Assembly: GCA_964618925.1 (NCBI GenBank)
Contig: CAZUCZ010000001.1
Coordinates: 1,464-53,817 of the forward strand
Length of the DNA stretch: 52,354 nucleotides
From: an uncultured Candidatus Saccharibacteria bacterium
GTDB taxonomy: Bacteria; Patescibacteriota; Minisyncoccia; Phycocordibacterales; UBA9973
Reading direction: 5' to 3'
Part shown: positions 1,659 to 26,079 of the stretch, one piece after another
How positions within the stretch are numbered: the stretch's first letter is position 1
How the letters are laid out: each line of letters starts with the position of its first letter
The notes under the pieces: model-generated
Databases searched by the model: none
The model's input: only the letters and a program-made list of their open reading frames with translations
What the model was told of the DNA's origin: nothing
Made by a program: the position numbers and the translations under genes

Positions 1659-2344
1659 TGAAACTCATCATCCTCGCTGCCGGAAAAGGTACACGGTTTG
1701 CACCCCTCACTGATACTATCCCAAAAGGCATGGTGCCTGTGCTCGGCGAGCCGTTATTAAAACACGTCCTTACCCCATATCTGCCTAATGTATCAGATAT
1801 TATATTTGTAGTGAATGCAGGGCTCGGGATGCAGATCAAGGATTATTTTGGCGGCAACTACCTCGGGCATCGTATTTTTTATAAAATCCAAATAGAACAA
1901 AAAGGCACCATGGATGCACTGATGACCTGCAAAGATCTCATTACAGACGATGCACTTTTTTGTGTTGCAAATGGAGATGATCTATTCCGAGAAAAAGATA
2001 TCAAGCAAGCAATTGAATCTAATCAGATCGGCATGGGTATCTCAAAAAAAATGATGCCCAAGAATTATCTCGGAGTAAAAGTAGAAGATGGTATGATCGC
2101 TGGTTTTACCCGGCACGACACACCAGAACCCGTGGTAGAAGATTTATTCTGCAATGGATTTCATATACTCGATAGAAAGATTTTTGAGTTCGAGGGTATG
2201 AAAACCAAAGACGGCGAGCTCGGACTCCCCCATACATTGTTCGAACACTTAGATACATACCCCCTTCGGGCACTTTATTTCACAGAATGGGAGACAGTAA
2301 ACCGCCCCGACGACATCCCTGCGGCAGAGGAGTTTTTACAGTAG
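1658..2344 (+). CDS. Sugar-phosphate nucleotidyltransferase (NTP_transferase family)
   Basis: N-terminal MKLIILAAGKGTRFAPLTDTIPKGMVPV matches the G-x-G-T-R-(x)n-PK signature of glucose-1-P nucleotidyltransferases. Confidence 0.75.
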   Translation: MKLIILAAGKGTRFAPLTDTIPKGMVPVLGEPLLKHVLTPYLPNVSDIIFVVNAGLGMQIKDYFGGNYLGHRIFYKIQIEQKGTMDALMTCKDLITDDALFCVANGDDLFREKDIKQAIESNQIGMGISKKMMPKNYLGVKVEDGMIAGFTRHDTPEPVVEDLFCNGFHILDRKIFEFEGMKTKDGELGLPHTLFEHLDTYPLRALYFTEWETVNRPDDIPAAEEFLQ

Positions 2345-2743
2345 TGCTGAATTGTGAGTTTTGATATGCCAACCTGATTCACTTTTTGTGTAAACAAATG
2401 TATATTTAGCCTTTATTTTAGTTTGACCGCAAGTAAAAACATATATTCCACTAAACACATAATCATTGGGTGATGATAAAGGTTGGCACTCTTGTTGTAT
2501 TAAAAACCCTACAGGGTCTTTCAAGAAAAATAATTCAAAATAGCCCCGTATTTGTTCTTTTCCTCTGCAAATTATTTGTTCAGTGGTATTCGGTAGCGTG
2601 GGCAATAATATTACATCTTCAGCATAAATACTGAGAATTTTTTCTAAATCTTTATTTTTTAATGCTTCGTTCCAGGTATTAAAGTTTTCTTGCGCAATTT
2701 GCTTTAATGGATTTTCTTTTTCCATAACAGGTACGGTGTCCAT
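2336..2743 (-). CDS. NTF2-fold / SnoaL-DUF4440-like small protein
   Basis: 135-aa ORF. WNEALKNKDLEKILSIYAEDVILLPTL... resembles SnoaL/DUF4440 N-termini. AT-rich relative to its neighbours. The 3' end overlaps the convergent 1658..2344 gene by 9 nt. Confidence 0.45.
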   Translation of the reverse strand: MDTVPVMEKENPLKQIAQENFNTWNEALKNKDLEKILSIYAEDVILLPTLPNTTEQIICRGKEQIRGYFELFFLKDPVGFLIQQECQPLSSPNDYVFSGIYVFTCGQTKIKAKYTFVYTKSESGWHIKTHNSALL

Positions 2744-2844
2744 ACGATATAAATATATTATTAATAAATTTATAAAAAATAATAACCCACTTTGTTTAAA
2801 AATTCAAATTTTGTTATTTTACCCCCTATTGATATATTGTAATC

Positions 2845-3432
2845 ATGGATAAGCACATAAAACTCGAGAAAATACACACAAAATGGATGGTTGAATGCAC
2901 CTGTGAACTCAAGAAAACCGCGACACAGGCGGTCCCAGGACACGGGAACCCGGATGCAGATATTGTATTTATCGGCGAAGCACCTGGTAAAAAAGAAGAC
3001 CAGCTCGGGGTGCCTTTTGTTGGTGCCGCAGGAAAATTCCTCGACGAAATGCTTAGAGAGATCAAATTAAAACGAGAAGATATATACATTACTAACATAG
3101 TAAAATATCGCCCACCGAACAATCGCGATCCCCTCCCCGAAGAAAAAGCAGCCTGCCGAACCTGGCTCCTCGAAGAACTTAAAATAATTTCGCCAAAAGT
3201 TATTATATTTTTGGGTCGCCATGCCATGAATAACTTCTTCCCTGATTTAAAAATAGGACAGGCGCACGGCAAGCTCCTCGTCAAACCATTCAAGGGTATA
3301 TCCACAAAGTATTTCTACCCACTCTACCACCCCGCTGCCGCACTCTATGACGGCTCAATGCGAGAGACGTTGCTTGCCGATTTTAATAAAATTCCAAAGG
3401 TATTAAAGGAAATTGAAAAAAGACAAGCTTAG
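2845..3432 (+). CDS. Uracil-DNA glycosylase, family 4
   Basis: GEAPGKKEDQLGVPFVGAAGKFLDEML and a C-terminal HPAAAL-type motif (YHPAAALYD) are the family-4 UDG signatures. Confidence 0.8.
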   Translation: MDKHIKLEKIHTKWMVECTCELKKTATQAVPGHGNPDADIVFIGEAPGKKEDQLGVPFVGAAGKFLDEMLREIKLKREDIYITNIVKYRPPNNRDPLPEEKAACRTWLLEELKIISPKVIIFLGRHAMNNFFPDLKIGQAHGKLLVKPFKGISTKYFYPLYHPAAALYDGSMRETLLADFNKIPKVLKEIEKRQA

Positions 3433-3447
3433 TGGTAATCTTCTTAG

Positions 3448-4206
3448 ATGAAGAGTAATACAAAAATCATCGTTCTCGCTGCTGGTAAAGGCACTCGTAT
3501 GGGTGGCGATATGCCAAAAGTGCTCTCTCAGGTAAAAGGTAAAGCGATGATTACTCACCTCCTCGAATCCATCGAAAAATCTGGCATCGACACAGAACCC
3601 ACTATCATTGTGGGTTATAAAAAAGAGTTAGTGATCGCTAAACTTGAAAAAACCGGTAAAAAATATAATTTCATCTACCAAGAAAATCAACTTGGCACTG
3701 GACATGCAGTAAACCTCGCCAAAGAAAGTTTGCAGGGTGCTGCGGATAACATCATCATTCTCTATGGCGACCACCCATTTGTCAGCAGTGAGACGATTAA
3801 AAAAATAAATGATGCGCATATTAAGTCCGGCAAAAAAATCACCATGGCCACAGTAAAACTACCCGACTTCAAAGATTGGCGAATCAACTTCGTAAATTTT
3901 TCTCGTATTATTCGCGATGAATCTGGCAACATCATACGCGATGTCCAATATAAAGACGCAACTGATGCAGAAATAAAGATCACTGAAGTAAACCCATGTT
4001 ATTTTTGTTTTGATGCGTCGTGGCTCTGGGAAAATCTGACAACACTAGAAAACAACAACGCCCAGAAGGAATACTATCTGACTGACCTCATAAAAATAGC
4101 CCATGACCATAATATCGAGACAGAATCTATCGCCATCGAGCCACACGAAGCACTCGGGGCAAATACACACGCTGAACTTGGAATCCTCGAACGGTTCGCA
4201 GTATAA
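3448..4206 (+). CDS. GlmU-like N-terminal uridyltransferase domain only (no LbH acetyltransferase domain)
   Basis: IIVLAAGKGTRMGGDMPKVLSQVKGKAMI, QENQLGTGHAV and ILYGDHPF match the GlmU pyrophosphorylase domain. The ORF stops at 252 aa. Confidence 0.7.
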   Translation: MKSNTKIIVLAAGKGTRMGGDMPKVLSQVKGKAMITHLLESIEKSGIDTEPTIIVGYKKELVIAKLEKTGKKYNFIYQENQLGTGHAVNLAKESLQGAADNIIILYGDHPFVSSETIKKINDAHIKSGKKITMATVKLPDFKDWRINFVNFSRIIRDESGNIIRDVQYKDATDAEIKITEVNPCYFCFDASWLWENLTTLENNNAQKEYYLTDLIKIAHDHNIETESIAIEPHEALGANTHAELGILERFAV

Positions 4207-5577: not shown

Positions 5578-6270
5578 ATGGAATCTAAGTGGTTCAAATT
5601 AAAAACAAGAGCAATAACTTTTAGAAAACAAGGAAAATCTATAAGAAATATTGAATTAACTCTGGGCATACCCCGCTCTACTTTAAGTGGTTGGTTTAAA
5701 AATATTAAACTTACTACATCGCAAGCTAAAATCCTCGAACAGAAACATAAAAAATCTTTAATAGCAGCCCGAAAAAAGGCCGTACTCTGGCATAATAAAC
5801 AAAAAAATAATAGGTTGCAATTAGCAGAACACGAAGCTAATAAGACTTTATTCAAAATAAATAGCAATCAAGAAATTATGGAGCTAGCACTTGCACTCCT
5901 ATATTTAGGTGAAGGATTTAAAAAATCTCCAACTACAGGAATTGGTAATACTGACCCTTTGCTCTTAAAATTTTTTCTTAAAATAATGTTGAATGTATAT
6001 AAATTAGATATTAGAAAAATTAGGTTTGATTTACATATTCGTGCTGATCAAAACCCAGAGTCCATTAAAAAATACTGGTCAAAAATATTAGGAGCTCCTT
6101 TAAATAGATTTAAATCTATTTCGGTTGACAAAAGAACCATTGGAAGAATATCTTATAAAGATTATAAAGGAGTATGCGTAATTGATTGTGGTAACATTGC
6201 GATACAAAGAAAATTGGTATATATTGGTAGGAAGTTTTGTGAAAAAACTATAGAAAATTTGGGCGGTTAG
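5578..6270 (+). CDS. Hypothetical DNA-binding protein: N-terminal HTH, possible LAGLIDADG-like core
   Basis: RKQGKSIRNIELTLGIPRSTLSGWFKN looks like a resolvase-type HTH. LALALLYLGEGFKK weakly resembles a LAGLIDADG motif. Very AT-rich. The last 10 nt, including the TAG stop, overlap the 5' end of tRNA-Val. Confidence 0.4.
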   Translation: MESKWFKLKTRAITFRKQGKSIRNIELTLGIPRSTLSGWFKNIKLTTSQAKILEQKHKKSLIAARKKAVLWHNKQKNNRLQLAEHEANKTLFKINSNQEIMELALALLYLGEGFKKSPTTGIGNTDPLLLKFFLKIMLNVYKLDIRKIRFDLHIRADQNPESIKKYWSKILGAPLNRFKSISVDKRTIGRISYKDYKGVCVIDCGNIAIQRKLVYIGRKFCEKTIENLGG

Positions 6271-6333
6271 CTCATTTGGTAGAGCGACTCATTGACGTTG
6301 AGTAGGTGACAAGTTCGATTCTTGTACCGCCCA
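6261..6333 (+). tRNA. tRNA-Val (anticodon GAC)
   Basis: Hand-folded cloverleaf: acceptor GGGCGGT/ACCGCCC, D-arm GCTC-ATTTGGTA-GAGC, anticodon arm ACTCA-TTGACGT-TGAGT, T-arm ACAAG-TTCGATT-CTTGT, discriminator A. No encoded CCA. Confidence 0.9.
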
Positions 6334-6340
6334 CAAATTT

Positions 6341-7285
6341 ATGTATAAACTAAATTCTGAAAAACAAATTTCAGCTAATAAAGAAATTATTACAAAAATA
6401 CTGGTCGAGTATTCTATTTCTAATTTCACTTTTCAACCAATAAATGAAGGGATAGCAAATAGTTCTTTTATTATTCAAAGTGATGAACAGAAATACGTTT
6501 TACGAATCTATGCACAAGGAAAAAATGATAAGGATATTCTTTTTGAAATTAATTTTCAAGACTATTTAAGAAGTAATGGCATCCCTATACCTGCAATATA
6601 TCCAAATAAAAATAACAAAGAATTAACCATCATTAAGGAAAATGGCTTAGAATGGCAATGTATACTGATGGAATTTATAGAGGGTCAAAGTGTCACTCCT
6701 CATCCTTCCACAGAGCTCAATATAGAACTAGCAAAATTACAAGCCAGAATGCATATATTGGGAATAGATTTTACAAATACAATAAATAATTCAATAAAAC
6801 TGTCTGAACTTCAGGATTCCCTCGCGAAAGAAATAAAAGAAACTCCAGTAACCAATAATGACGTTCCTGAATTTATAGAACGAGTGAAAAACTTTAATTA
6901 TCAACTTGATTCCAGCCTTCCATATGGATACAACCACTTAGACATAGATTTTGATGGAAATGTAATTACCAAAGATAATCATATTGTGGGAATCATAGAT
7001 TTTGAAGACCTGAAATATTCCCCTCCTGTAGTTTGCCTGGGTTACACATTATGGAATATTTTAGATGATGAAGGAATAGATGCAGTAATAAATTATCTTA
7101 ATGCCTACGAAGAAATTCGCCCCCTTACTTCACTCGAAAGCAAAACACTACCTCATGTAATTTTCTTTCGAAATTACGTTATAGGAATACTTCGTCTCCT
7201 CTTGTGGAAAAAAGATAGAAACATCAACGACATATTAGATATCTTACAACTAGAAAAAGAGATACCTAAAATGAAATTTAAGTAA
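6341..7285 (+). CDS. Phosphotransferase-family kinase (APH / homoserine-kinase-II / choline-kinase-like)
   Basis: YVLRIY (ATP-Lys region), YNHLDIDFDGNVI (catalytic-loop-like, atypical) and GIIDFEDL (DFE = DFG-equivalent). Starts 8 nt after tRNA-Val. Very AT-rich. Confidence 0.65.
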   Translation: MYKLNSEKQISANKEIITKILVEYSISNFTFQPINEGIANSSFIIQSDEQKYVLRIYAQGKNDKDILFEINFQDYLRSNGIPIPAIYPNKNNKELTIIKENGLEWQCILMEFIEGQSVTPHPSTELNIELAKLQARMHILGIDFTNTINNSIKLSELQDSLAKEIKETPVTNNDVPEFIERVKNFNYQLDSSLPYGYNHLDIDFDGNVITKDNHIVGIIDFEDLKYSPPVVCLGYTLWNILDDEGIDAVINYLNAYEEIRPLTSLESKTLPHVIFFRNYVIGILRLLLWKKDRNINDILDILQLEKEIPKMKFK

Positions 7286-7304
7286 GAAATCTTTCTTTTA
7301 AGAT

Positions 7305-7790
7305 TTATTGCGTATCTGCACTAGGTCCGTAGATAGAAGGAACTTTTGCACCCATTGCGCGGAGGTATGTAGAAAGTTGTCCACGGTGATGAATCGCATC
7401 AAACAGAAAACCCCATGCCATGCCGTATTTCTTGTCCTCCCATTTACCATTTGGACCCATGTCGAGGACACCCATACCATTCTCCCAATCATCCTCAGAA
7501 ATATTTTCTACGTCTTGTAAGAGTTGTGTGTACCCAGTATCAAAAGTCTTAAGCATGTCTTCTTTGTTTGTACTTTGCATCGCATGTGCATTAAAATTAG
7601 GAACTCCTTTGGTTAAAATTCCAGAAATTGCTTCCCATTGCGCAGTCAGCTGTGCAGCGAGGTTTCCTGCTTCGCGAGCTTTTTCGTGAACTTTGTGACT
7701 AAATTTATCATCTGGTAATGCTTCGATCGCATCTCTAAATTTTTTCTGTTCATCTTTTAAAGTTTTAATAAAAAATTCTTTTGTATTCAT
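7305..7790 (-). CDS. DinB-family (DinB_2-like) protein
   Basis: C-terminal FDAIHHRGQLSTYLRAMG is the DinB-superfamily His-containing helix. 161 aa is a typical size. Confidence 0.7.
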   Translation of the reverse strand: MNTKEFFIKTLKDEQKKFRDAIEALPDDKFSHKVHEKAREAGNLAAQLTAQWEAISGILTKGVPNFNAHAMQSTNKEDMLKTFDTGYTQLLQDVENISEDDWENGMGVLDMGPNGKWEDKKYGMAWGFLFDAIHHRGQLSTYLRAMGAKVPSIYGPSADTQ

Positions 7791-8012
7791 AATTTGTATA
7801 TGTTATATGTATTAATACATACAGTATAACCCACTCGAAAAAAAGGAACAATTAGTATATAATCAATCAATATTTATATGAATCCGGTTAGTAGAAAATG
7901 ACATTAAAAGGAAACATATAGATCGGCATATTGTATGGATAAAAAAGCTTTTATTAATTTAATATATATAGACAATTTGCTCTTTTAGAGCGATGTCATT
8001 TTTCACTACCGG

Positions 8013-9242
8013 ATGAAGATATTATCGATCGAAACATCCTGCGACGACACAGGTATCACCATAATGGAAGTCACCGGCGGCATTACGAACGCTTCTTTTA
8101 AGGTGCTCGCAGATAGCGCAAATTCTCAAATCGCGACCCACATCCCCTACGGCGGCGTCTACCCTGCCCTTGCTAAACGCGAACATCAGAAAAATCTACC
8201 TATCTTACTCGAGCAAGTATTGCTCGAAGCAAAACTAGATAAACCTGCCCGCAATGCTTCCGGCATAGCTGGTGCAGGCGGGAAGAAACAACCAGTCGAT
8301 ATCATCGCGGTCACCTATGGTCCCGGGCTCGAAATGTGCCTCTGGGAAGGCATCACCTTTGCAAAAGATCTCGCTAAGAAATGGAATGTGCCGCTCATCC
8401 CGACAGACCACATGGCAGGACACATCTGCTCGGTATTTGGTAAAAAACACAATGCGAACGAGCCGCAGAAAAAAACCAAAGCAAAGTTCCAAATCCCAAA
8501 AATCAAAACACCACTGCTATCTCTACTTGTTTCCGGCGGACACACCCAGCTCATCGTCAGCAAGAAATGGATGGAATACGAGATCATCGGGGAGACACTC
8601 GACGATGCCGTCGGTGAAGCGTATGACAAAGTCGCCCGTATGCTTGGGCTACCCTACCCTGGTGGACCAGAGATTTCAAGACTTGCAAACGAAGCCAGAA
8701 TCAAAAAACTCGGGCACGAACCCGAGAGAAGCCTTGGGAGGAGCGACGGCGACGGACAGAGAAAATTTTCAGCAGAAAATTTTCGTGCTGAATCCGGGTT
8801 CGTGCCCGAGTTTTCCCTCCCCCGCCCTATGTTGAAATCTAAAGATTTTAATTTTTCATATTCTGGATTAAAAACATCAGTATTATATTTGATAAGGGAC
8901 ATGGGTGGACTCGAAAAAATAAACGAAGAGACAAAACGCGCCATCGCACTCGAATTCGAAAACGCGGCAATAGAATGCCTCCTTTATAAAACAGCGAAAG
9001 CAATAGAGAAATACAATATCAAGACGGTGATCGTCGGTGGTGGAGTGTCTGGCAATTCATTCCTGCAACAAGAAATGAAAAAGCTCGTCGGCAAAAATAT
9101 AAAACTTTACATGCCACAGAAAAACCTCTCTGGAGATAATTCCCTCATGATCGGTATCGCCGGCTATCTCGAATACATAAAAAATAAAAAGAAAGTTCCA
9201 AAACCTGAGACCATCAAAGCCGACGGCAATGTAAAGCTCTAA
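8013..9242 (+). CDS. tsaD: tRNA N6-adenosine threonylcarbamoyltransferase TsaD, with lineage-specific insertions
   Basis: MKILSIETSCDDTG, VTYGPGL, LLVSGGHTQL, FSYSGLKT and VGGGVSGN are Kae1/TsaD landmarks. At 409 aa it is about 60-70 aa longer than usual because of at least three inserted segments. Confidence 0.9.
   Translation: MKILSIETSCDDTGITIMEVTGGITNASFKVLADSANSQIATHIPYGGVYPALAKREHQKNLPILLEQVLLEAKLDKPARNASGIAGAGGKKQPVDIIAVTYGPGLEMCLWEGITFAKDLAKKWNVPLIPTDHMAGHICSVFGKKHNANEPQKKTKAKFQIPKIKTPLLSLLVSGGHTQLIVSKKWMEYEIIGETLDDAVGEAYDKVARMLGLPYPGGPEISRLANEARIKKLGHEPERSLGRSDGDGQRKFSAENFRAESGFVPEFSLPRPMLKSKDFNFSYSGLKTSVLYLIRDMGGLEKINEETKRAIALEFENAAIECLLYKTAKAIEKYNIKTVIVGGGVSGNSFLQQEMKKLVGKNIKLYMPQKNLSGDNSLMIGIAGYLEYIKNKKKVPKPETIKADGNVKL
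8709..8810. repeat. 102-bp palindromic element with perfect 16-bp terminal inverted repeats, in frame inside tsaD (codons 233-266)
   Basis: CTCGGGCACGAACCCG (8709-8724) is the exact reverse complement of CGGGTTCGTGCCCGAG (8795-8810). There is an internal 9-bp hairpin AAAATTTTC-AGCA-GAAAATTTT. Length is 102 = 34 codons, starting on a codon boundary. Confidence 0.85.
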
Positions 9243-9283
9243 AGAGGTGCAAAAAGCTACTAAAATATGATATTATTGCTGGT

Positions 9284-11443
9284 ATGGACGAGAAGCTCTT
9301 AAAGCCGTATAACCCAAAAGAAACCGAAGAAAGAATATATAAACTATGGGAGGATAGTGGTTTTTTTAATCCCGATGTCTGTGTAAAGGAAGGTATCACG
9401 AAGGCAGATGCCCCGTATTTTTCTATCGTTCTCCCCCCTCCAAATGCGACTGGTGTGCTCCATCTCGGACATGCACTCGAAGACTCGATGCAAGACACCA
9501 TGATCCGTTATAATCGTATGAAAGGTAAACGCACACTCTGGGTACCCGGCACCGACCACGCAGCTATAGCGACTGATGCAAAGGTGGGAAAAATTCTAGA
9601 AAAAGAAGGTCTGAAAAAACGAGACATCGGACGTGAAAAGTTCCTCGAACGTGTAGATGAGTTCGTAGACAATAGTAGAAAAACAATAGTAAAACAATTA
9701 CGCAAGATCGGTGCTTCGCTCGACTGGTCTCGTGAAGCTTTTACGTATGACGAAGCACGTAACTTTGCAGTACGTACTACATTTAAAAAAATGTATGACG
9801 ATGGACTCATCTACCGAGGTAATAAGATAGTAAACTGGGATCCAAAAGGTCAGACGGTAATCTCCGATGATGAAATAGTCTACGAAGAAAGAAAAGCAAA
9901 ACTCTATACCTTTAAATACAGCAAGGACTTCCCTATCTCTATTTCAACAACTCGCCCGGAAACCAAAGTCGGTGATACTGCGGTGGCGGTGCACCCAGAC
10001 GATGCACGATACAAAGAATTTGTCGGTAAAGAATATGATTTAGAATTTTGTGGAGTGCCGATACATATTAAAATAATAGCTGACAAAGAAGTCGACCCGG
10101 CATTTGGTACTGGTGCACTCGGAGTTACTCCTGCGCATGCGCTCATCGACTGGGAAATGGCAGACAGGCACGACCTCCCTCGCCCACAGGTTATCAACGA
10201 ATACGCAAAGATGATGGTAGGTGGAGAAAACTTACTCGGTAAAAAAACTACTGAAGCAAAAGAAGTAGTAGTAGAATGGCTCCGCTCCGAAGGGCTACTC
10301 GAAAAAGAAGAAGAGATAAATCAAAATATCAGTACTGCTGAGCGCACCGGAGGCATCATCGAACCTCTCCCAAAACTCCAATGGTTCGTCGATGTAAATA
10401 AAAAAATTCCTGAGCGTGGTAACAAATCTTTAAAAGAACTCATGCTCGAACCGGTAAGAAATAAAAACATAGAGATACTACCAGATCATTTTGAAAAAGT
10501 TTATTTTAATTGGATTGAAAATCTCCGTGACTGGTGTATATCAAGACAAATCTGGTACGGACACAGGGTGCCGGTATGGTATAAAAACGATGAAATATAT
10601 TGTGGTGTAGAAGCACCCGGTGGCGAAGGTTGGGTACAAGACGAAGACACTCTCGACACCTGGTTCTCTTCTGGGTTGTGGACTTTTTCTACTCTCGGCT
10701 GGCCAGATATGGATGCATCTGATCTAAAGAATTTCCACCCGACTAACGTCATCAACCCTGGATATGAAATACTCTTCTTCTGGGTCGCACGTATGATCCT
10801 CATGTCTCAATACTTGATCGGTGACATACCTTTCAAGACCGTATACCTGCACGGGATGCTCCGTGATGCAAAGGGACGTAAATTTAGTAAATCTCTCGAC
10901 AATGGCGTAGACCCTATCGAAATCATAAATGAATTCGGCGCAGATGCCCTCCGCATGTCTATGATCGTGGGCATAGGTCCCGGCGCTGATGGAAAGTTCG
11001 ATATACAAAAAGTAAAAGCATATGGAAAATTTAGTAATAAAATCTGGAATGCGACACGATTCGTACTCGACAATACCAAAGATTTTGATTTTGAAAAAGC
11101 TATCGAATATGACGCTGATGACAAAGCTTCAGACGAAGAATTACAAAATCTCGTCACCGAAATCACCAGAGAACTAGATGAATATAAATTCTATATTGTT
11201 GCCGAGAAGCTATATCATTATTTCTGGCACACATTTGCTGATATAATAATAGAACGGTCAAAGAAAAAAATATTAGAAGGAGCCGGTGCCGATTCTGCAA
11301 AGAAATTACTTTATACACACCTCGTCACACTACTCACTGTGCTGCATCCGTTTATGCCGTTCGTAACCGAAGAAATCTGGAGCATGCTCCCTCTAAAAAA
11401 CAAACAGTTATTACTTATTGAAAAATGGCCAACCCAACGATAA
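9284..11443 (+). CDS. valS: Valyl-tRNA synthetase (short form, no C-terminal coiled-coil)
   Basis: PPPNATGVLHLGHA (HIGH), TTRPETKVGDTAVAVHP (editing domain), KFSKSLDN (KMSKS). 719 aa. Confidence 0.9.
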   Translation: MDEKLLKPYNPKETEERIYKLWEDSGFFNPDVCVKEGITKADAPYFSIVLPPPNATGVLHLGHALEDSMQDTMIRYNRMKGKRTLWVPGTDHAAIATDAKVGKILEKEGLKKRDIGREKFLERVDEFVDNSRKTIVKQLRKIGASLDWSREAFTYDEARNFAVRTTFKKMYDDGLIYRGNKIVNWDPKGQTVISDDEIVYEERKAKLYTFKYSKDFPISISTTRPETKVGDTAVAVHPDDARYKEFVGKEYDLEFCGVPIHIKIIADKEVDPAFGTGALGVTPAHALIDWEMADRHDLPRPQVINEYAKMMVGGENLLGKKTTEAKEVVVEWLRSEGLLEKEEEINQNISTAERTGGIIEPLPKLQWFVDVNKKIPERGNKSLKELMLEPVRNKNIEILPDHFEKVYFNWIENLRDWCISRQIWYGHRVPVWYKNDEIYCGVEAPGGEGWVQDEDTLDTWFSSGLWTFSTLGWPDMDASDLKNFHPTNVINPGYEILFFWVARMILMSQYLIGDIPFKTVYLHGMLRDAKGRKFSKSLDNGVDPIEIINEFGADALRMSMIVGIGPGADGKFDIQKVKAYGKFSNKIWNATRFVLDNTKDFDFEKAIEYDADDKASDEELQNLVTEITRELDEYKFYIVAEKLYHYFWHTFADIIIERSKKKILEGAGADSAKKLLYTHLVTLLTVLHPFMPFVTEEIWSMLPLKNKQLLLIEKWPTQR

Positions 11444-12677: not shown

Positions 12678-12685
12678 ATATTATG

Positions 12686-12758
12686 TGCTTGGGGGCAGAA
12701 TCGCACTGCCGACCCTTCCCTCTTCAGGGGAATGCTCTACTAACTGAGCTACCCAAGC
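12686..12758 (-). tRNA. tRNA-Phe (anticodon GAA) with a non-canonical D-loop/T-loop pair
   Basis: Reverse complement is GCTTGGG TA GCTC AGTTAGTA GAGC A TTCCC CTGAAGA GGGAA GGGTC GGCAG TGCGATT CTGCC CCCAAGC A. The T-loop reads TGCGATT (G at position 55) and the D-loop AGTTAGTA (A at position 18). Confidence 0.8.
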
Positions 12759-13085: not shown

Positions 13086-13157
13086 GCCCTCGTAGTTCAA
13101 TGGATAGAACAGTTCCGTCCTAAGGAATAGATGCACGTTCGATTCGTACCGAGGGCA
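13086..13157 (+). tRNA. tRNA-Arg (anticodon CCU)
   Basis: GCCCTCG TA GTTC AATGGATA GAAC A GTTCC GTCCTAA GGAAT AGAT GCACG TTCGATT CGTAC CGAGGGC A. One C-A mismatch in the T-stem and a 4-nt variable loop. Confidence 0.8.
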
Positions 13158-13238
13158 CTAGATATATGTAATATATCCTTCATTCAGACGTCATAATACT
13201 TATGAACGGTCGAATTTTAATTTTTAAACTACAACACT

Positions 13239-13790: not shown

Positions 13791-13821
13791 TATATCAATA
13801 AGCGAGGAGTAACGCAAAAGT
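13791..13821. repeat. 31-bp direct repeat, copy 2, abutting the 3' end of tRNA-Gly
   Basis: TATATCAATAAGCGAGGAGTAACGCAAAAGT. The last base is the tRNA-Gly discriminator position. Its first 8 nt form the right arm of a perfect 26-nt palindrome (13773-13798). Confidence 0.85.
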
Positions 13822-13891
13822 GCGGGATACGAGAATCGAACTCGTGTTTAATCCTTGGGAAGGACTCGTTCTACCACTAGACCAATCCCGC
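13821..13891 (-). tRNA. tRNA-Gly (anticodon CCC)
   Basis: Reverse complement is GCGGGAT TG GTCT AGTGGTA GAAC G AGTCC TTCCCAA GGATT AAAC ACGAG TTCGATT CTCGT ATCCCGC A. One mismatch in the D-stem. Confidence 0.8.
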
Positions 13892-19928: not shown

Positions 19929-22004
19929 CTATTGCTTTTTTGTAGTATCTTTTGTTTCAGAAGTATTTGTAGATGTACCTCTTAGAGAATCGACGTATTT
20001 CATCAAGTCCTTATTACCTGGAGCAAATGAAAGAGCTTTCTGTGCGTATGAGACAGCACCTGCTGTGTCGCCCTCGTTTTTAGCTATTTGTGACAATGTG
20101 ATAAGTGCATCAATATAATCTGGCTTGAGAGTTAATGCTTGATTTGCATAATCTTTGGCATCTGAATTTTTACCAAGAGATATAGATACATTTGCCATCA
20201 CAAGCTTGAGACGTGGATTGTTTGGATTTAATTTTGAAGCACTCTCGTATGCTTCGAGGGCTTTACTGTAGCCATCTTTTACTCCGATAATACCAGCTGT
20301 CTGGAAGACATTACCGAGCATTTGGTAGTTAAGATAATTCTTATTATTATACGTAGTTGCAAGCTGGGCACCACTTACTGCTTGATCTAGGGATGTTTGT
20401 AATGTTGCTTTGTCAGCATCGGAAATATCTGTAGCGCCTGCTGAGACGATGGAATTCATCTTAAGAAGATATACCTGTGCATAGGTACGGAGATATAAGT
20501 CGTTTGTATTTAATACGAGGGCTTTATTGATATATGTTTCCGCGTCAGCTACATTTGCTGCAGAGAGAGTCTTTGTAAAGTACGGTACAGAAATAAAACG
20601 CTGAATATATTTGAATCCAACAGCTGCAGAAAGAATCATAAGAATTACAAGCACGAGCATAGAGATGAAACTCTTTCGGTGATCATTTAAGAACGACACA
20701 GAGAGCTCGCCTTCTTTGGTGTTCGAAGACACGAGCCCAATGAATACTCCAGCAAACACGAACGCAAGAAGAAAGATCACACTACCAGTAAAGTAGAAAA
20801 ATGAAGCAATGAAGAGGTATAGTGAGAGAAAGAAAAATGATACTGTCTCAAGACTGATGTTATTCTTCAGACTAAAGAAGAGCCACTTGATACCAGTAAT
20901 AACGAATAGTACTAAGAAGACGATCCAAGCCAGGATACCGAGGAGTCCAGTTGTTGCAGTAAGTGTTGGCAATAAGCCAGCGCCAGAATTAAACGATACA
21001 TCCCAAAACTGAGTTTGATTAATGAGGACCGGTTTATACATTGCCCATGCCTCAGTAAAACGGTTTGGTCCGATACCTAAGACTGGATGATCTTTAACTA
21101 CATCCTTAGTTACCGAAAACGTAGACATGAGAGAAGGACTGATCTCGTTATTTACTAGTCCGAGTCGTGTAGGGAGAATTCCTCCGATCAACCCAGCAGA
21201 CATAAAGAAGAATAGAGACACAAGCACAACACCAAAAGAAAATAGTGGGAAATTATTCTTCATTGCCTCTTTCCCTTTCGCAGAATTTATAGATACTTTG
21301 TATATAAAAATAAGAAGTGCGAAAATACCAAGAATCTCCCAGGCAAACACAAAGTTCACTAATGTGATTAATGCCAAAGCAACGACGACAAATACTCCGA
21401 GGATGATCTTGAGAGTCTTCTCGATAGGAAATAGTTCCAGTAAAAAGAGAGCTGCAACTACAAAGAAACCAGTAAAAATTCCAAAAGAGTTCCAAGAACC
21501 TAAGATATTATCAGTCTTGTTTACTAATACTCCGAGCGCTAATACTTTTGGTAAAAATAAATGAAGTGCTTGGAACACCATCACTACTAATGCCGAAGCA
21601 ATCGTACCGAACAATACCATGCGTGCATTTTTAGGATCTTTGAAGATAAGAGCTGCCATAAGCATAAGCAGAAAAGCTGCGAGCATGAACCAAAAAGTAC
21701 CGACATCGAGCATCGTACCAAAGAATGATGCATCGAGTGCTCCAGAAAAAATAGCAGACAGTAGCGTCACTACCACAACACCAAGCCCTGCGACGAGCGG
21801 GAGAGATTTTGGAAGCGTGATATGCCCATCAGAGAATCTCACGATAATCCAAAAGATTACGGAAATGATCAGACCAATAACTAAAAATAATCCCTTACCA
21901 GTTTCGATAGGAATATTTGTAAAAGGTAGGAAAAAAATTGGTAATAAAGTTACTACTAAAAAGAGAGACCAGAACGATAGCTTGGTTAATATATTTGAAT
22001 TCAT
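19929..22004 (-). CDS. O-antigen-ligase-like (Wzy_C) polytopic membrane protein with C-terminal TPR repeats
   Basis: More than 10 TM helices over about 450 aa, followed by repeated TPR-like units (...YAQVYLLKMN..., ALEAYESASKLNPNNPR, AKDYANQALTLKPDYIDA, AVSYAQKALSFAPGN). Confidence 0.6.
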   Translation of the reverse strand: MNSNILTKLSFWSLFLVVTLLPIFFLPFTNIPIETGKGLFLVIGLIISVIFWIIVRFSDGHITLPKSLPLVAGLGVVVVTLLSAIFSGALDASFFGTMLDVGTFWFMLAAFLLMLMAALIFKDPKNARMVLFGTIASALVVMVFQALHLFLPKVLALGVLVNKTDNILGSWNSFGIFTGFFVVAALFLLELFPIEKTLKIILGVFVVVALALITLVNFVFAWEILGIFALLIFIYKVSINSAKGKEAMKNNFPLFSFGVVLVSLFFFMSAGLIGGILPTRLGLVNNEISPSLMSTFSVTKDVVKDHPVLGIGPNRFTEAWAMYKPVLINQTQFWDVSFNSGAGLLPTLTATTGLLGILAWIVFLVLFVITGIKWLFFSLKNNISLETVSFFFLSLYLFIASFFYFTGSVIFLLAFVFAGVFIGLVSSNTKEGELSVSFLNDHRKSFISMLVLVILMILSAAVGFKYIQRFISVPYFTKTLSAANVADAETYINKALVLNTNDLYLRTYAQVYLLKMNSIVSAGATDISDADKATLQTSLDQAVSGAQLATTYNNKNYLNYQMLGNVFQTAGIIGVKDGYSKALEAYESASKLNPNNPRLKLVMANVSISLGKNSDAKDYANQALTLKPDYIDALITLSQIAKNEGDTAGAVSYAQKALSFAPGNKDLMKYVDSLRGTSTNTSETKDTTKKQ

Positions 22005-22023
22005 ATGTTTATTATACTACACA

Positions 22024-25000
22024 CTAGACGACGATGTTAATAATCTTCCTGGGGATAAAAATCACTTTTTTGATATCCGCGACGAGCCATTTTTTGACAT
22101 CTGGGATCTGGGTTGCAATAGCTAGTGCTTCGGATTCGAGGATTTCTGGGCTTGCCTTAAATTCTGCACGAACTTTACCGTTTATTTGAATCACGATAGT
22201 CACTTCTAGTTCTTTCATTTTACTTTTATTTGCTTTCGGCCATGACTCCAATACGAGGAGACTTTTATGTCCTAAATTATTCCAGATTTCTTCAGTTATG
22301 TGTGGTGCGAATGGAGATAGAATTTTCAAAAATAGTTCAAAATCTTTTTTATCTACACATGCTGCTTTCTCCATTTCATTTACTAAGATCATCATTGATG
22401 AAATACAAGTATTGAAAGCAAAATTTTCTATATCTGTGGTAACTTTCTGGATTGTTTTATGTAGAACTGTTTGCAGCACTGCATCTGAGGTTGTCTTTTT
22501 ATCTGCAGGAATTTTTTGTGAAAGTTTCCAGACACGTTCGAGAAAACGACGTGATCCAACAATGTTGTCAGTACTCCATGGAAGTGATGCATCGAATGGA
22601 CCCATGAACATTTCATATACCCGTAGTGTATCTGCACCATAATTTTTGACAATTTCATCTGGGTTAATGACATTACCCCAACGCTTACTCATCTTTCTAT
22701 TGTCCGTACCCAGAATCATACCTTGATTACGAAGTGTCTGAAATGGTTCTTCGGTCACCACGAGTCCGTAATCTTTTAAGAATTTGTGCCAGAAACGCGA
22801 GTAAAGTAAATGTCCTGTGGCGTGTTCCTGTCCACCAACATACATATCTACATTTTTCCAATACTTTATCGCTGACTTATCAGCAAAAGATTTCTTATTC
22901 TTCGGATCCATGTAACGCAAGAAATACCAAGAAGACCCTGCCCAACCTGGCATCGTATTCGTCTCGTAGCCATGCTTCATCCAATCTTTCACACTTGCGA
23001 GCGGAGACTCTCCGGTACCGAGTGGTTTATATGACTTTACAGGTGGAAGTTTGAGAGGAAGTTTTTTCTCAGGCAATTCTTTTATCATCCCCTCTTTGTC
23101 GTACATGAGTGGTATAGGTTCTCCCCAATACCGCTGCCGTGCAAAGATAGCATCACGCATTTTGTAATTTACCTTGCGGGTAGCAAAACCTTTTTTTACG
23201 AGCCAGTCTGTGATATCTGCTCGTGCTTCATGAACTTCTCTTCCTTTAAATTCTGGTGGTTCTGTTAAAATTCCATCTAATATAGGTTGCTCTTTACCTA
23301 GAAGAACGTTCCATCTATATCGCAAACTTTCTGTGGTTAAAAAAGATTCTACTTCTTCTTTTTTAAGCCAAATGAATTCATGGTTTTGTTTCTCTGTCTC
23401 TGAGACTTCTTTTTGGTCTCCATTTTCTAATTCAAAATAAAATGTATCGAAATGTCCAAAACGGTTTTGGTCTTTTGGTTTATGAAAAAACAAACTATGA
23501 TATCTACCGAGCTTCTTTACTAGTTTTAAATTAAAATACCCAGTTTCCTCTTCAATCTCAGCTCGAGCTGCTTCTTCAGCTGTCTGTCCTTTTTCTATAC
23601 CACCACTAATAAAAGTTCCCCAGTTTACTTTCTTCCATTTTAATCCTAAGTACTTGTCTTCTGACCAATGTTTAACGATCGCAAGGATCGCATCTCTCTC
23701 AACTGTTGGTTTATCCTTTCGCACTGCATCCATCCCATCATTGTCCACAAAAAACGGTTCAATAACTTCTTTTAATTTAATATTAAACTTTTTTGCAAAG
23801 GCAAAATCGCGAACGTCATGTGCAGAACATTTTACAATACCTGTACCATAATCTTTTAATGCAAAACTCGCTACCCATATTGGCAAGTCGCCATTACCGA
23901 GCGGATCGATGGCATATCTGCCAGTAAAAATGCCATCGATGTCTTTATATTCATCCCCAAGTTTATTTCTCTTATCTATTATTTCTTTAGCTTTCTTTAG
24001 TACAGCATCTTTTTCTGGTCTACCTTCGAGTAATTTTAAAAGAAGCGGATGATCTGGAGCAATAACAAAAAATGTATCAGCATAGCAGGCTTCGTAGTGG
24101 GCACTAAATGTTTTTATGATAATATCACTATCTTTAACTTTCGCAGAAAAGATTAAACCTTCACTCTTCCCTATCCAGTTCTTCTGTATTTCTTTTATAT
24201 GAAGTGACCAATTCAAACTATCGAGTCCAGAGAGGAGTCTGTCTGCATATGCGGTGATGCGCATGAACCATTGACGCATGTTTTTCTTCTCGACTGGATA
24301 TCCGCCACGCTCAGACACAGGACCATGTGGACCATCGACGACTTCATCATTTGCAAGAACTGTACCGAGTCCTGGACACCAATTCACCTCGGCATAGCCT
24401 TCATACGCGAGACGATATTTCATCAAGGTATCTTGCTTTTCTTTTGGGGTTTTGATCTTCCATTCTTTTGCGGTGAAAATTCCTACATTATTGTCAGAGA
24501 CTGCATCTATATTTTCATTACCAGACTTTTCAAAAATCTTGGTGAGTTTTTCTATCGGCTGTGCTTTATTTGTCTTTTTGTCATACCAAGAATTGTAAAT
24601 CTTTAAGAATATCCATTGCGTCCATTTATAAAATTCTGGATCCGTCGTGTTTACTCTACGATCCCAATCATACGAGAGTCCGATAATAGAGAGCTGCTTT
24701 TCAAATGTTTTGACATTTTTCTCTACTGCTTGGCGAGGGTTAATATTGTGATCTATCGCATATTGCTCTGCAGGTAAACCAAATGCATCATAACCCATCG
24801 GATGAAGAACATTGTATCCTTCCATCCGTTTCATTCGTGCAAATACATCGGACCCAATGTATCCTTTTGGATGCCCCACGTGCAACCCAACCCCTGAAGG
24901 ATATGGGAACATATCGAGCACATAGTATTTTTTCTGCTTTGATTTATTTGAGGTTTTGTAAGCCTTCTTTTTCTCCCAAATACTCTGCCATGATTTTTCA

Positions 25001-25026
25001 ATTTTCTTATGATCGTATTCTTTCAT
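22024..25026 (-). CDS. leuS: Leucyl-tRNA synthetase carrying an inserted Nudix-like domain
   Basis: PYPSGVGLHVGHP (HIGH), a CP1 block GTGIVKCSAHDVRDFAFA, RKVNYKMRDAIFARQRYWGEPIP and KMSKRWGN (KMSKS). At 1000 aa it is about 140-190 aa longer than typical bacterial LeuRS. Confidence 0.9.
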   Translation of the reverse strand: MKEYDHKKIEKSWQSIWEKKKAYKTSNKSKQKKYYVLDMFPYPSGVGLHVGHPKGYIGSDVFARMKRMEGYNVLHPMGYDAFGLPAEQYAIDHNINPRQAVEKNVKTFEKQLSIIGLSYDWDRRVNTTDPEFYKWTQWIFLKIYNSWYDKKTNKAQPIEKLTKIFEKSGNENIDAVSDNNVGIFTAKEWKIKTPKEKQDTLMKYRLAYEGYAEVNWCPGLGTVLANDEVVDGPHGPVSERGGYPVEKKNMRQWFMRITAYADRLLSGLDSLNWSLHIKEIQKNWIGKSEGLIFSAKVKDSDIIIKTFSAHYEACYADTFFVIAPDHPLLLKLLEGRPEKDAVLKKAKEIIDKRNKLGDEYKDIDGIFTGRYAIDPLGNGDLPIWVASFALKDYGTGIVKCSAHDVRDFAFAKKFNIKLKEVIEPFFVDNDGMDAVRKDKPTVERDAILAIVKHWSEDKYLGLKWKKVNWGTFISGGIEKGQTAEEAARAEIEEETGYFNLKLVKKLGRYHSLFFHKPKDQNRFGHFDTFYFELENGDQKEVSETEKQNHEFIWLKKEEVESFLTTESLRYRWNVLLGKEQPILDGILTEPPEFKGREVHEARADITDWLVKKGFATRKVNYKMRDAIFARQRYWGEPIPLMYDKEGMIKELPEKKLPLKLPPVKSYKPLGTGESPLASVKDWMKHGYETNTMPGWAGSSWYFLRYMDPKNKKSFADKSAIKYWKNVDMYVGGQEHATGHLLYSRFWHKFLKDYGLVVTEEPFQTLRNQGMILGTDNRKMSKRWGNVINPDEIVKNYGADTLRVYEMFMGPFDASLPWSTDNIVGSRRFLERVWKLSQKIPADKKTTSDAVLQTVLHKTIQKVTTDIENFAFNTCISSMMILVNEMEKAACVDKKDFELFLKILSPFAPHITEEIWNNLGHKSLLVLESWPKANKSKMKELEVTIVIQINGKVRAEFKASPEILESEALAIATQIPDVKKWLVADIKKVIFIPRKIINIVV

Positions 25027-25050: not shown

Positions 25051-26079
25051 TTATTTTACAGGTTTTGGAAACGGTGGATAGATATCTTTATCTATCGTCC
25101 TTTCGAAACACGTCCTACCCACCCCATGTTCCCAAGACTGATTCATCCCCCCTTCAGTTGGATATGAAGACACTGCAACGTCACTTGCCATCATTGGCAT
25201 TACCCCGCCGTAGCCTTTGTATTCTCTCCAGCCCTTTGGTATTGGTAAATTAAAATCAGCACATAACTCAAACGTCAGAGGACCCTTCACCGCATACTCA
25301 TATGTCTTACCTTTTTCAAATTGAGGATCTACTGGTACCGCATATCCGGATAATGCATTTGATAGATCAGTAAGTTTTTCAGGCAAATGTTCTTTTTGTT
25401 GCCAATAGGTAATCACTTGGTATTGGATACTCTGGAGGTCTTGCATTCTCTTATCATCCAAACGCAAATCGCGTTGTTTCCATGGTGTACCGATCACAGT
25501 GAAGCTCCACACAATCACCGCTAAGACAATAATACTCGATTTAATAGCAGTCCAGGTGTTTACATTGAACCCTAAGATTGTTTCCTTGTGCTTCAATTTA
25601 CAAATAAAATATACGCCGACATAGAGCGCCGCTATTAATACTGCGACAACCTTTAAGATAAATCGTATTGTGATCTCACCTGAGACAAAGTACTGCACAA
25701 GTGCGACGAGGTCTATCGCAGTTACGAGTGCTGATAAAAACAATATAATATAGACGAGCCATTTCTTAACCATCTCATCTATTTTACTTATTTCATTTTT
25801 CAAATGTTTGTTCCAAAAATAAGACACGGTAAGGAGCACTGGAAAGAATATAATGAGGGTTGCGAGTGCAAATCTGATACCTTCGTAGTCATAGGTAGAA
25901 TAACCATATTGATAGCTTGCATTTAAAACATCCGGAAAACGCTTTTCGAGCGTTCCAAAAACAAGATTTAAAAAAGATACGACAGAAGTTATTAAAGTTA
26001 CGAGTAATCCTAAAGACAAGAAGAAGAAACTTACGTTCATCCTTGACTTATCCACTTGTAAATTTTGTTGTGTTTCCAT
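25051..26079 (-). CDS. DUF5671-like membrane protein
   Basis: Five or so TM helices, then a C-terminal soluble domain DLRLDDKRMQDLQSIQYQVITYWQQKEHLPEKLTDL. I remember this pattern from DUF5671 proteins common in CPR genomes. Confidence 0.5.
   Translation of the reverse strand: METQQNLQVDKSRMNVSFFFLSLGLLVTLITSVVSFLNLVFGTLEKRFPDVLNASYQYGYSTYDYEGIRFALATLIIFFPVLLTVSYFWNKHLKNEISKIDEMVKKWLVYIILFLSALVTAIDLVALVQYFVSGEITIRFILKVVAVLIAALYVGVYFICKLKHKETILGFNVNTWTAIKSSIIVLAVIVWSFTVIGTPWKQRDLRLDDKRMQDLQSIQYQVITYWQQKEHLPEKLTDLSNALSGYAVPVDPQFEKGKTYEYAVKGPLTFELCADFNLPIPKGWREYKGYGGVMPMMASDVAVSSYPTEGGMNQSWEHGVGRTCFERTIDKDIYPPFPKPVK

Follow-up and report, generated by a model that had tools for sequence, protein, structure and literature searches.

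Introduction

Can an aminoacyl-tRNA synthetase (aaRS) house a second hydrolase within its editing domain and, if so, what would such a hydrolase do there? The question is raised by leuS, the leucyl-tRNA synthetase (LeuRS) gene located in a stretch of 52,354 nucleotides of contig CAZUCZ010000001.1 (assembly GCA_964618925.1, positions 1,464 to 53,817), hereafter called the window. A preliminary description, made from the letters alone, had placed a Nudix-like fold in CP1, the editing domain of this enzyme, beside a degenerate Thr-rich editing motif, and had suggested that the graft might replace or supplement the editing thus lost. The insert is a genuine and complete Nudix fold, and it belongs to a distinct Nudix subfamily located mostly inside the LeuRS of Patescibacteria. 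Synthetases rank with the most thoroughly studied enzymes. Extra catalytic domains inside the editing domain of a synthetase are rare, and none was found described for LeuRS. The parts are known, being a synthetase and a hydrolase fold; their nested combination is undescribed yet widespread, and the sequences have been public for years. The preliminary description knew of no aaRS-Nudix chimera of this architecture; likewise, a full-text literature search, which left most subscription journals outside its coverage, yielded nothing on LeuRS-Nudix or aaRS-Nudix proteins or on LeuRS editing in Patescibacteria.

A Nudix domain nested in the CP1 domain of LeuRS

The host gene lies on the minus strand, residue n of its product occupying window positions 25026-3n+1 to 25026-3(n-1). 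Its landmarks are the following.

22024..25026, minus strand: leuS, bacterial-type LeuRS of 1000 amino acids (aa) plus stop (open reading frame (ORF) list, TIGR00396, PDB matches)
24871..24882, minus strand: HIGH signature, HVGH, residues 49-52 (translation)
23755..24183, minus strand: CP1 editing domain, N-terminal three quarters, residues 282-424 (PF13603; aligns to Thermus thermophilus LeuRS 147-363)
23296..23754, minus strand: nested Nudix domain, residues 425-577 (153 aa), between P424 and E578 (alignment with the Nudix-less relative P0036, Pfam, AlphaFold2 (AF2), Foldseek)
23152..23295, minus strand: CP1 remainder after the insert, residues 578-625, ending KVNYKMRD (aligns to T. thermophilus 381-422)
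22681..22695, minus strand: KMSKS signature, KMSKR, residues 778-782 (read in the translation)
22144..22473, minus strand: anticodon-binding domain, residues 852-961 (PF08264, 76 bits)

The product is a bacterial LeuRS, scoring 847.7 bits against the full-length equivalog hidden Markov model (HMM) TIGR00396 leuS_bact (cutoff 548.4), and the best PDB matches of the whole protein are LeuRS structures with E values down to 5.5e-172, led by M. mobile 3ZIU. The class I landmarks are normal, as had been read from the translation: among 76 LeuRS sequences, H49, V50, G51 and H52 are invariant, as is K781, and K778, M779, S780 and R782 are nearly so. With other bacterial LeuRS (TIGR00396; T. thermophilus 1H3N/2BYT, E. 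coli 4AQ7/4ARC), the enzyme has in common the class Ia Rossmann core, HIGH and KMSKS signatures, a CP1 placed behind the Zn hairpin, an anticodon-binding domain and a C-terminal domain. An AF2 model of the full-length protein has a mean predicted local distance difference test score (pLDDT) of 88.0 and a predicted template modelling score of 0.74, with pLDDT of 90-96 over the insert and its linkers. The window LeuRS is the housekeeping enzyme of a Paceibacterota bacterium (Patescibacteria, also called the candidate phyla radiation, CPR).

Within this ordinary frame, the Nudix domain interrupts the editing domain, since the match to the LeuRS editing domain PF13603 (119.2 bits, residues 282-425) stops at residue 425, covering profile positions 1-143 of 185. 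The remainder of CP1, residues 578-625, is contiguous with residue 424 in Nudix-less relatives and leads back into the catalytic core. The gap noticed at first is indeed extra long: when the protein is aligned with T. thermophilus LeuRS (1h3n), its residue 423 corresponds to Thermus 363 and 585 to 381, and about 160 window residues thus stand in place of a 17-residue CP1 loop. The host loop measures 5-17 residues in Nudix-less relatives and Thermus LeuRS. The insert starts about 20 residues past the HDxRD helix, in a surface loop of CP1. Protein and codon alignment to the syntenic Nudix-less ortholog P0036 fixes its limits exactly at residues 425-577. In Nudix-less close relatives the junction reads KLKEVIVP followed directly by ENPILDGVLTEP; in the window KLKEVIEP is followed by FFVDNDG and the rest of the Nudix domain. 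The span originally proposed (23293-23709, residues 440-578) covers the fold, but misses the conserved N-terminal 15 residues. These residues, FFVDNDGMDAVRKDKPTVER, are part of the domain, and free-standing homologs begin with the same P(L/I)F(V/I)D...VER segment.

That the insert has a Nudix fold, as first proposed, rests on several lines of evidence. Pfam NUDIX PF00293 scores 45.7 bits (E 8.5e-12; cutoff 21.1) at residues 466-559 of the whole protein, and 50.9 bits (E 2.1e-13) on the excised residues 440-578, a Pfam check of the kind that the preliminary description had called for. An HMM of the Nudix subfamily scores 244 bits on the insert. For residues 430-590, AF2 modelling from an alignment that included 25 free-standing relatives gave a mean pLDDT of 92.5. 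Foldseek matches the predicted domain, with template modelling (TM) scores of 0.73-0.80 and probability 1.00, to MutT/Nudix proteins, Aquifex diadenosine tetraphosphate (Ap4A) hydrolase, NudI and RppH; E. faecalis 2AZW, Aquifex 3I7U, NudI, NudB, CT771 and RppH are its neighbours at TM 0.6-0.8. A search of the six-frame ORFs of the window with the family HMM found no second copy of the subfamily, and the window ORF list holds no ORF of 80 aa or more that overlaps the Nudix region on other frames. The flanks of the insert show no convincing repeats, direct or inverted, and only AT-rich chance matches were seen there. The GC content at third codon positions is 0.27 in the insert and 0.34-0.35 in the flanking parts of the gene, which fits a different history and is not decisive.

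Conservation of the Nudix box

The motif that defines the fold is located as follows.

23536..23604, minus strand: Nudix box GGIEKGQTAEEAARAEIEEETGY, residues 475-497 (sequence reading; Q-type variant)

Written out as G475-GIEKG-Q481-TAEEAAR-A489-E490-I-E-E493-E494-T-G-Y497, the box departs from the strict form GX5EX7REUXEEXGU at two positions, as already noticed in the preliminary description. It has G1, E16, U17, E19, E20, G22 and U23, with E7 replaced by Q481 and R15 by A489, the Arg standing at position 14 rather than 15. The metal-binding E490, E493 and E494 are all present. Among 312 instances of the domain, drawn from each embedded site and from free proteins, E16, E19 and E20 are all Glu in 295, and these three residues are under strong purifying selection in every context. 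Two types of box exist, one with E7 and R15 (192 instances) and the other with Q7 and no Arg at 15 (93; the Q-type), mixed forms numbering only 4. Such covariation suggests that two interacting residues were lost as a pair, and not that the box is decaying. The strict box is found in 52 of 66 embedded relatives. The 25 closest free-standing proteins (155-197 aa, at most 61% identical to the window domain) are all close kin of that domain and nearly all have the Q-type box, and in their alignment G46, G47, E49, G51, Q52, E61 and E65 are invariant.

Conservation extends beyond the box. Embedded and free forms have in common R444, W464-K-K, F507-x-H, K511, N515-R516, FEL, and EE...H549...W553. 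These motifs of the window domain (WKK before the box; K..NR, FEL and EE...H...W after it) are not those of any characterised Nudix family. Stand-alone Nudix proteins (2AZW, 3I7U, NudI 6DT3, NudB 2O1C, CT771, RppH) have the same alpha/beta/alpha fold at TM 0.6-0.8 and a REUXEE-type helix. The window domain, in contrast, is only 12-25% identical to them, is nested in another enzyme, has a Q7/A15 box and reaches no equivalog. Assignment to RppH (NF001934-NF001938; best 21.3 bits, cutoff 118), to the MutT 8-oxo-dGTPase (TIGR00586; 13.1 bits, cutoff 97.9) and to NudE, ADPRase, NudI or NudB (all far below their equivalog cutoffs) was tried and rejected. The window domain is acidic, with an isoelectric point (pI) of about 5.5 and a net charge of about -5. 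Median pI values are 5.6 for embedded domains and 5.2 for free ones, against 9.2 for the rest of LeuRS.

Distribution, insertion points and copy number

The LeuRS-Nudix layout is common to hundreds of related uncultured bacteria. A full-length search recovered the window protein itself (P0026) together with dozens of PF00293-bearing LeuRS at 52-80% identity, from NCBI, JGI, ENA and Logan assemblies of Paceibacterota and other Patescibacteria, as well as close relatives of 845-880 aa without a Nudix. The insert is present at the window's position in 66 of the best 120 LeuRS relatives, all from Patescibacteria, and absent in 54; this sample was ranked by similarity to a query that has both a Nudix and a variant CP1, and it shows that combinations exist rather than giving unbiased frequencies. 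It also supplies the alignment with Patescibacteria relatives that had been proposed as a check at the outset. When the insert alone was searched exhaustively against 1.84 billion cluster representatives, 471 matches reached E<=1e-3. Among the best 150 of these, about 105 have LeuRS segments and 45 are Nudix only. The long representatives checked against Pfam were LeuRS in eight of eight cases, and neither among them nor among the best 150 matches was a member of the subfamily found inside another synthetase. GTDB species representatives contain 61 Q-type loci, 49 embedded in LeuRS and 12 free, labelled as Paceibacterota, Moranbacteria, Sungbacteria, Kaiserbacteria, Taylorbacteria, Azambacteria, Adlerbacteria, Staskawiczbacteria and Saccharimonadales. 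Labels such as Nitrospira, Bdellovibrionales and Nanoarchaeota on some metagenome bins are probably due to mis-binning. The architecture is thus widespread, occurring in many classes of Patescibacteria, and some of the genomes that have it, such as GW2011 and RIFCSP bins, were made public as early as about 2015.

The choice of search mattered. A word-indexed search with the 161-aa insert returned free-standing Nudix proteins only and missed all LeuRS-embedded homologs, even the window protein; taken alone, it would have wrongly pointed to a unique fusion. The embedded relatives were recovered by the full-length query and the exhaustive representative search. Several such proteins are named 'class I tRNA ligase family protein' at NCBI and leucyl-tRNA synthetase at JGI. 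They can be annotated as LeuRS with one or more nested Nudix domains.

Three insertion points are used in LeuRS, which has one to three Nudix copies per enzyme. Site 1 is the loop that joins the first strand of CP1 to the Thr-rich strand; the window enzyme uses site 2; site 3 lies within the catalytic core, around query residue 685 (P0171, P0211, P0218, P0247). A paper on a CP1 hairpin (PMC4138327) was of no help in placing site 2. Giant LeuRS ORFs, measured from stop to stop, contain three copies (L011:4642-9318, 1559 aa; L010:1137-5753, 1539 aa; L029:3307-7689, 1461 aa). P0111, P0146 and P0188 are also listed as three-Nudix LeuRS, with two copies before and one after the CP1 core or in other arrangements. 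A multi-copy enzyme may combine Q-type and canonical-box domains, as P0111 and P0146 do. Additionally, an alpha/beta serine hydrolase (PF06821 Ser_hydrolase / Abhydrolase_1) has been inserted in LeuRS beside at least one Nudix, at residues 245-360 of P0183, 26-338 of P0231, 258-442 of P0265, 652-772 of L011:4642-9318 and 283-438 of L049:4216-7839. It stands mostly in site 1, the CP1 loop directly before the Thr-rich strand; the best match in P0231 is N-terminal. An origin of site 1 by tandem duplication of CP1 and Nudix with loss of the first CP1 was considered and rejected, the apparent double CP1 matches being one CP1 that an insert splits after its first strand. A real partial duplication was found only in L029, which has a partial second CP1 (model positions 84-144). 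The Nudix-less LeuRS at L008:914-3763 has an insert of about 130 aa at site 1 (residues ~230-365) without a Pfam match.

Among class Ia synthetases, an added catalytic domain is also found in IleRS with an N-acetyltransferase domain (NCBIfam NF040702). The domain added to the window enzyme differs in being of another enzyme class, nested in the editing domain, variable in copy number and exchanged as a cassette.

A variant editing motif independent of the insert

The second feature of the window enzyme is the state of its editing pocket, marked by two segments.

24088..24108, minus strand: variant Thr-rich motif F307-SAHYEA-313, canonically F-TTRPDT (alignment to 1h3n)
23806..23820, minus strand: HDVRD, residues 403-407, with editing-site aspartates D404 and D407, T. 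thermophilus D344/D347 (alignment)

The window protein thus differs from Thermus LeuRS in two respects, the 153-aa Nudix domain in a 17-residue CP1 loop and SAHYEA instead of TTRPDT. Thermus T247, T248, R249, P250, D251 and T252 align with S308, A309, H310, Y311, E312 and A313, and the Thr-rich motif is absent. The early impression that the Thr-rich pocket is lost holds for the motif; the editing-site aspartates D404 and D407 remain, and among 76 sequences D404, R406 and D407 do not vary. The window enzyme is also one residue shorter in the segment GTG-IVKCSAHD, which canonically reads GTG-AVMAVPAHD.

The variant CP1 is a separate conserved feature and is not decaying. Its consensus, which includes FSAHFeACYADTF and YGTGIVKCSAHDERDFAFAKK, is near-invariant over 60 sequences, and its identity between P0026 and P0027 (92%) is level with that of the catalytic core. 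In the E. coli enzyme, T252 reportedly keeps leucine out of the editing pocket, hydrolysis is said to need T247/T248, and D345 is said to anchor the substrate amino group. From this sequence pattern, in which Ser and Ala stand for the threonines and the Asp is kept, the variant CP1 has probably lost or altered post-transfer editing on its own. The same would apply equally to the numerous Nudix-less enzymes with this CP1. Naturally editing-deficient LeuRS are reportedly known from human mitochondria and from Mycoplasma, with a degenerate or missing CP1. The window enzyme is like these in lacking canonical Thr-rich residues in an otherwise functional-looking enzyme. It differs from them in that its CP1 is retained and strongly conserved, both aspartates are kept, and the variant module occurs on several backbones; its loss of editing would follow from the sequence. 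Translational proofreading may have changed naturally in Patescibacteria, and the conserved CP1 that lacks the three threonines is a candidate for such a change. At the place of the editing pocket, the variant CP1 newly conserves H310, E312, C314, D317, C400 and H403 (window 24085-24099 and 23806-23829), C314 being Phe in one subclade. As a matter of speculation, this set might form a metal site or a plugged pocket.

The two features are not tied to each other. In the similarity-ranked sample of 120, the 66 Nudix-bearing LeuRS have the canonical TTR(P/A)DT in 45 cases, the variant FSAH(F/Y)EA (or FNAH) in 17 and other variants in 4; the 54 Nudix-less enzymes are canonical in 11 cases, variant in 43 and otherwise in none. 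The same variant CP1 is found in syntenic orthologs with a Nudix (P0027) and without one (P0036). The presence of the Nudix is independent of the canonical Thr-rich motif in CP1. The clade of the window in a neighbour-joining tree of the backbone is likewise mixed, P0026-31 and P0034 having the insert and P0036 and P0038 lacking it.

Cassette exchange at the leuS locus

The comparison of syntenic loci offers a view of how the domain moves. Two neighbours of leuS in the window are conserved with it.

25051-26079, minus strand: DUF5671 membrane protein (conserved order with leuS in the P0027 locus)
19929-22004, minus strand: tetratricopeptide repeat (TPR) membrane protein (conserved order DUF5671-leuS-TPR)

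The gene order leuS-TPR protein(-MurJ-ABC) is common to the window, to the locus of P0027, which has a canonical-box Nudix, and to that of P0036, which has none; the upstream DUF5671 gene is common to the window and the P0027 locus. In this stable setting P0026 and P0027 are 89-92% identical in the N-terminal core and CP1 and 54% identical in the Nudix. At the nucleotide level, the window and P0027 are about 82% identical in the backbone and 58-72% across the insert. Conversely, P0026 and P0114 are 60% identical in the backbone and 72% in the Nudix. A Nudix more similar than its backbone means that a faster rate alone is insufficient and that replacement of the module by recombination is required. 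Neighbour-joining trees of the Nudix and of the backbone are strongly incongruent, and the embedded domain of P0122 nests among free-standing proteins. Where a cassette has been replaced, another Nudix of the same subfamily takes over. Judging from these comparisons, related enzymes appear to have acquired, dropped and exchanged the cassette at a leuS locus that kept its synteny.

CP1 itself (window 23755-24183) looks exchangeable. P0035 compared with the window protein is 81% identical in the backbone and 77% in the Nudix, and only 50% in CP1. More generally, backbones 77-83% identical to the window carry CP1 domains 36-53% identical, which are canonical or of a third, 'YDSVPQT' type. The reverse case is also found, with backbones 54-57% identical and a CP1 84% identical to that of the window (sequences compared: P0032/P0035/P0037, P0062/P0078, P0100/P0122). 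In the Nudix-less P0036 locus (L071:1-3581), a Prim-Pol and serine-recombinase island is found a few kb upstream.

Free-standing members of the subfamily repeatedly lie beside leuS, in the same orientation.

L003:8001-8492 and 8553-11438 (same contig as L027), same strand: free Q-type Nudix and leuS
L006:6001-6534 and 6537-9416, same strand: free Q-type Nudix and leuS
L008:376-867 and 914-3763, same strand: free Q-type Nudix and leuS
L026:5932-6420 and 6410-9355, same strand: free Q-type Nudix and leuS, overlapping

Three of the six free-standing relatives examined are located 2-60 bp upstream of leuS (L003, L006, L008), and L026 is a fourth case of a free Nudix directly upstream. In L003, L006 and L026, the adjoining LeuRS already has a canonical-box Nudix; the Q-type and canonical-type domains therefore coexist. 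Other free-standing members, with the same conserved residues, are located away from leuS.

Proposed function

Taken together, the best overall explanation, which we regard as probable while leaving ample room for doubt, is a nested and active Nudix hydrolase in a CP1 loop of a housekeeping LeuRS, and not an editing substitute. The domain would be a pyrophosphohydrolase tethered to the synthetase, acting in cis or nearby. Its substrate would be a small polyphosphate nucleotide that arises or is consumed at the synthetase, either an Ap4A-type by-product formed from adenylate and ATP or a nucleoside triphosphate (NTP); we propose this substrate class tentatively. Synthetases make Ap4A-type dinucleoside polyphosphates from aminoacyl-adenylate and ATP. 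A small polyphosphate nucleotide is favoured by the acidic surface of the domain and by its nearest solved relatives, which include NTP and dinucleoside-polyphosphate hydrolases. By sequence profile these relatives are NudB, NudI and an uncharacterised E. faecalis MutT-family protein; by fold they are the same three, plus Aquifex Ap4A hydrolase, CT771 and RppH. The structures 3I7U and 4MPO are among the top Foldseek matches, at the same level as NudI, NudB and RppH, and no Ap4A hydrolase was matched by sequence. If the Nudix acts on a by-product of amino-acid activation or on bound tRNA, it would connect tRNA charging, in organisms with minimal genomes, with the metabolism of nucleotides or alarmones or with the repair of tRNA, and LeuRS-Nudix would offer a recombinant system open to direct testing.

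However, several points weigh against this explanation. Next to LysRS or PheRS, LeuRS reportedly makes little Ap4A. The domain showed no motif specific to a substrate, and its Foldseek neighbours are generic small Nudix proteins, RppH among them. The box is off the strict consensus at two positions (E7 to Q, R15 to A), which leaves activity as something we infer. The close relatives P0036 and P0038 lack the insert, and it must therefore be dispensable for leucylation. Finally, the adjacency of free paralogs to leuS could reflect an origin of the insert by local recombination, and not a functional link.

A bolder version would take the Nudix and Ser_hydrolase grafts as a third catalytic site of an aaRS, working in cis with leucylation, either in destroying Ap4A or another nucleotide derived from the adenylate where it arises, or in the repair or inspection of the end of the bound tRNA-Leu. 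We rate it as possible but rather unlikely. If true, it would mean a new quality-control or signalling function in the editing domain of a whole bacterial superphylum.

The strongest rival, which is unlikely and still deserves some weight, assumes that a housekeeping Nudix, for instance an NTP or oxidised-nucleotide pyrophosphatase, is merely hosted in a permissive CP1 loop, with no mechanistic link to leucylation and with co-expression or genome streamlining as its benefit. Patescibacteria have small, fusion-rich genomes. The insert is dispensable in close relatives, free members exist away from leuS, the same loops take unrelated domains (Ser_hydrolase, the L008 insert), and the copy number varies, all of which suit a passive host. 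A mere guest, however, would hardly be expected to have about 70% of its subfamily's best representatives inside LeuRS and none in another synthetase, or to use three insertion points in one host protein. Moreover, free paralogs stand repeatedly directly upstream of leuS, and a replaced cassette gives way to a Nudix of the same subfamily.

The function suggested in the preliminary description, in which the Nudix would stand in for a defunct CP1 pocket, or add to it, as a second hydrolytic site for mis-activated aminoacyl-adenylate or mischarged tRNA-Leu, appears improbable. It draws on the replaced Thr-rich motif of the window LeuRS with a Nudix inside the same CP1, and on the relatives whose CP1 loops have gathered other hydrolase folds (PF06821, extra Nudix), in one case immediately ahead of the Thr-rich strand; such accumulation fits a theme of added hydrolytic capacity beside the tRNA 3'-end pocket. 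The distribution speaks against it, the insert being found on both canonical and variant CP1 and both being found without it: most inserts sit on a canonical motif, most Nudix-less relatives have the variant one, and syntenic orthologs with the same variant CP1 do without a Nudix. The chemistry is also unfavourable. Nudix enzymes cleave pyrophosphate linkages, and to our knowledge hydrolysis of an acyl-phosphate or aminoacyl-ester is not a Nudix activity. The acidic domain is, furthermore, unfavourable for tRNA binding.

Just as improbable is an RNA-end enzyme working on tRNA-Leu bound to LeuRS, which would either strip a 5' triphosphate or nucleotide cap, in the manner of RppH, or take a terminal pyrophosphate off the 3' CCA end. 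In the latter case, the pyrophosphate would be added by toxic enzymes of the alarmone-synthetase type, and the Nudix would be a tRNA repair module beside the CCA-binding domain. Sites 1 and 2 are both in CP1, which binds the tRNA 3' end, the mosaic and copy-number-variable evolution resembles conflict-type systems, RppH is among the Foldseek neighbours, and the weak best NCBIfam matches are RppH models (E 2e-4 to 2e-3). These RppH equivalog scores, however, amount to about 21 bits against cutoffs of 116-259, and a net charge near -5 is unlike that of RNA-binding Nudix enzymes. No toxin partner was seen in the neighbourhoods inspected. The insert matched no PADLOC defence model, and the free paralog P0001 scored only 17.7 bits.

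A non-catalytic Nudix fold, serving as a nucleotide sensor or as a structural brace of CP1, is highly improbable. Non-catalytic Nudix folds exist, such as NrtR and the C-terminal domain of MutY, and the window box lacks E7 and R15. Against this, the Q7/non-R15 pair is conserved, covaries and is found in free proteins as well, and E16/E19/E20 are kept in about 95% of the 312 instances. An assembly or binning artefact, in which a chimeric contig joins a Nudix gene to leuS, would be conceivable in a metagenome-assembled genome such as this source, but it is refuted by the in-frame, stop-free ORF and by the same architecture in dozens of independent assemblies and 49 GTDB species representatives, and can practically be dismissed.

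Further observations on the neighbourhood

A second, more distant Nudix gene is found 1-2 kb downstream of leuS in many loci labelled Saccharimonadia (L003:12244-13905; L008:4041-5730; also L016, L019, L020, L025 and L064-L069). In L003 and L008, it scores 33-44 bits against the family HMM and lies between nusB and the RNase III gene; in this position it may be an RppH-like enzyme. The window contains four tRNA genes, Val-GAC at 6261-6334, Phe-GAA at 12685-12758, Arg-CCT at 13086-13158 and Gly-CCC at 13820-13891, and no tRNA-Leu. A stretch of low GC content (0.32) extends over window positions 6001-8000.

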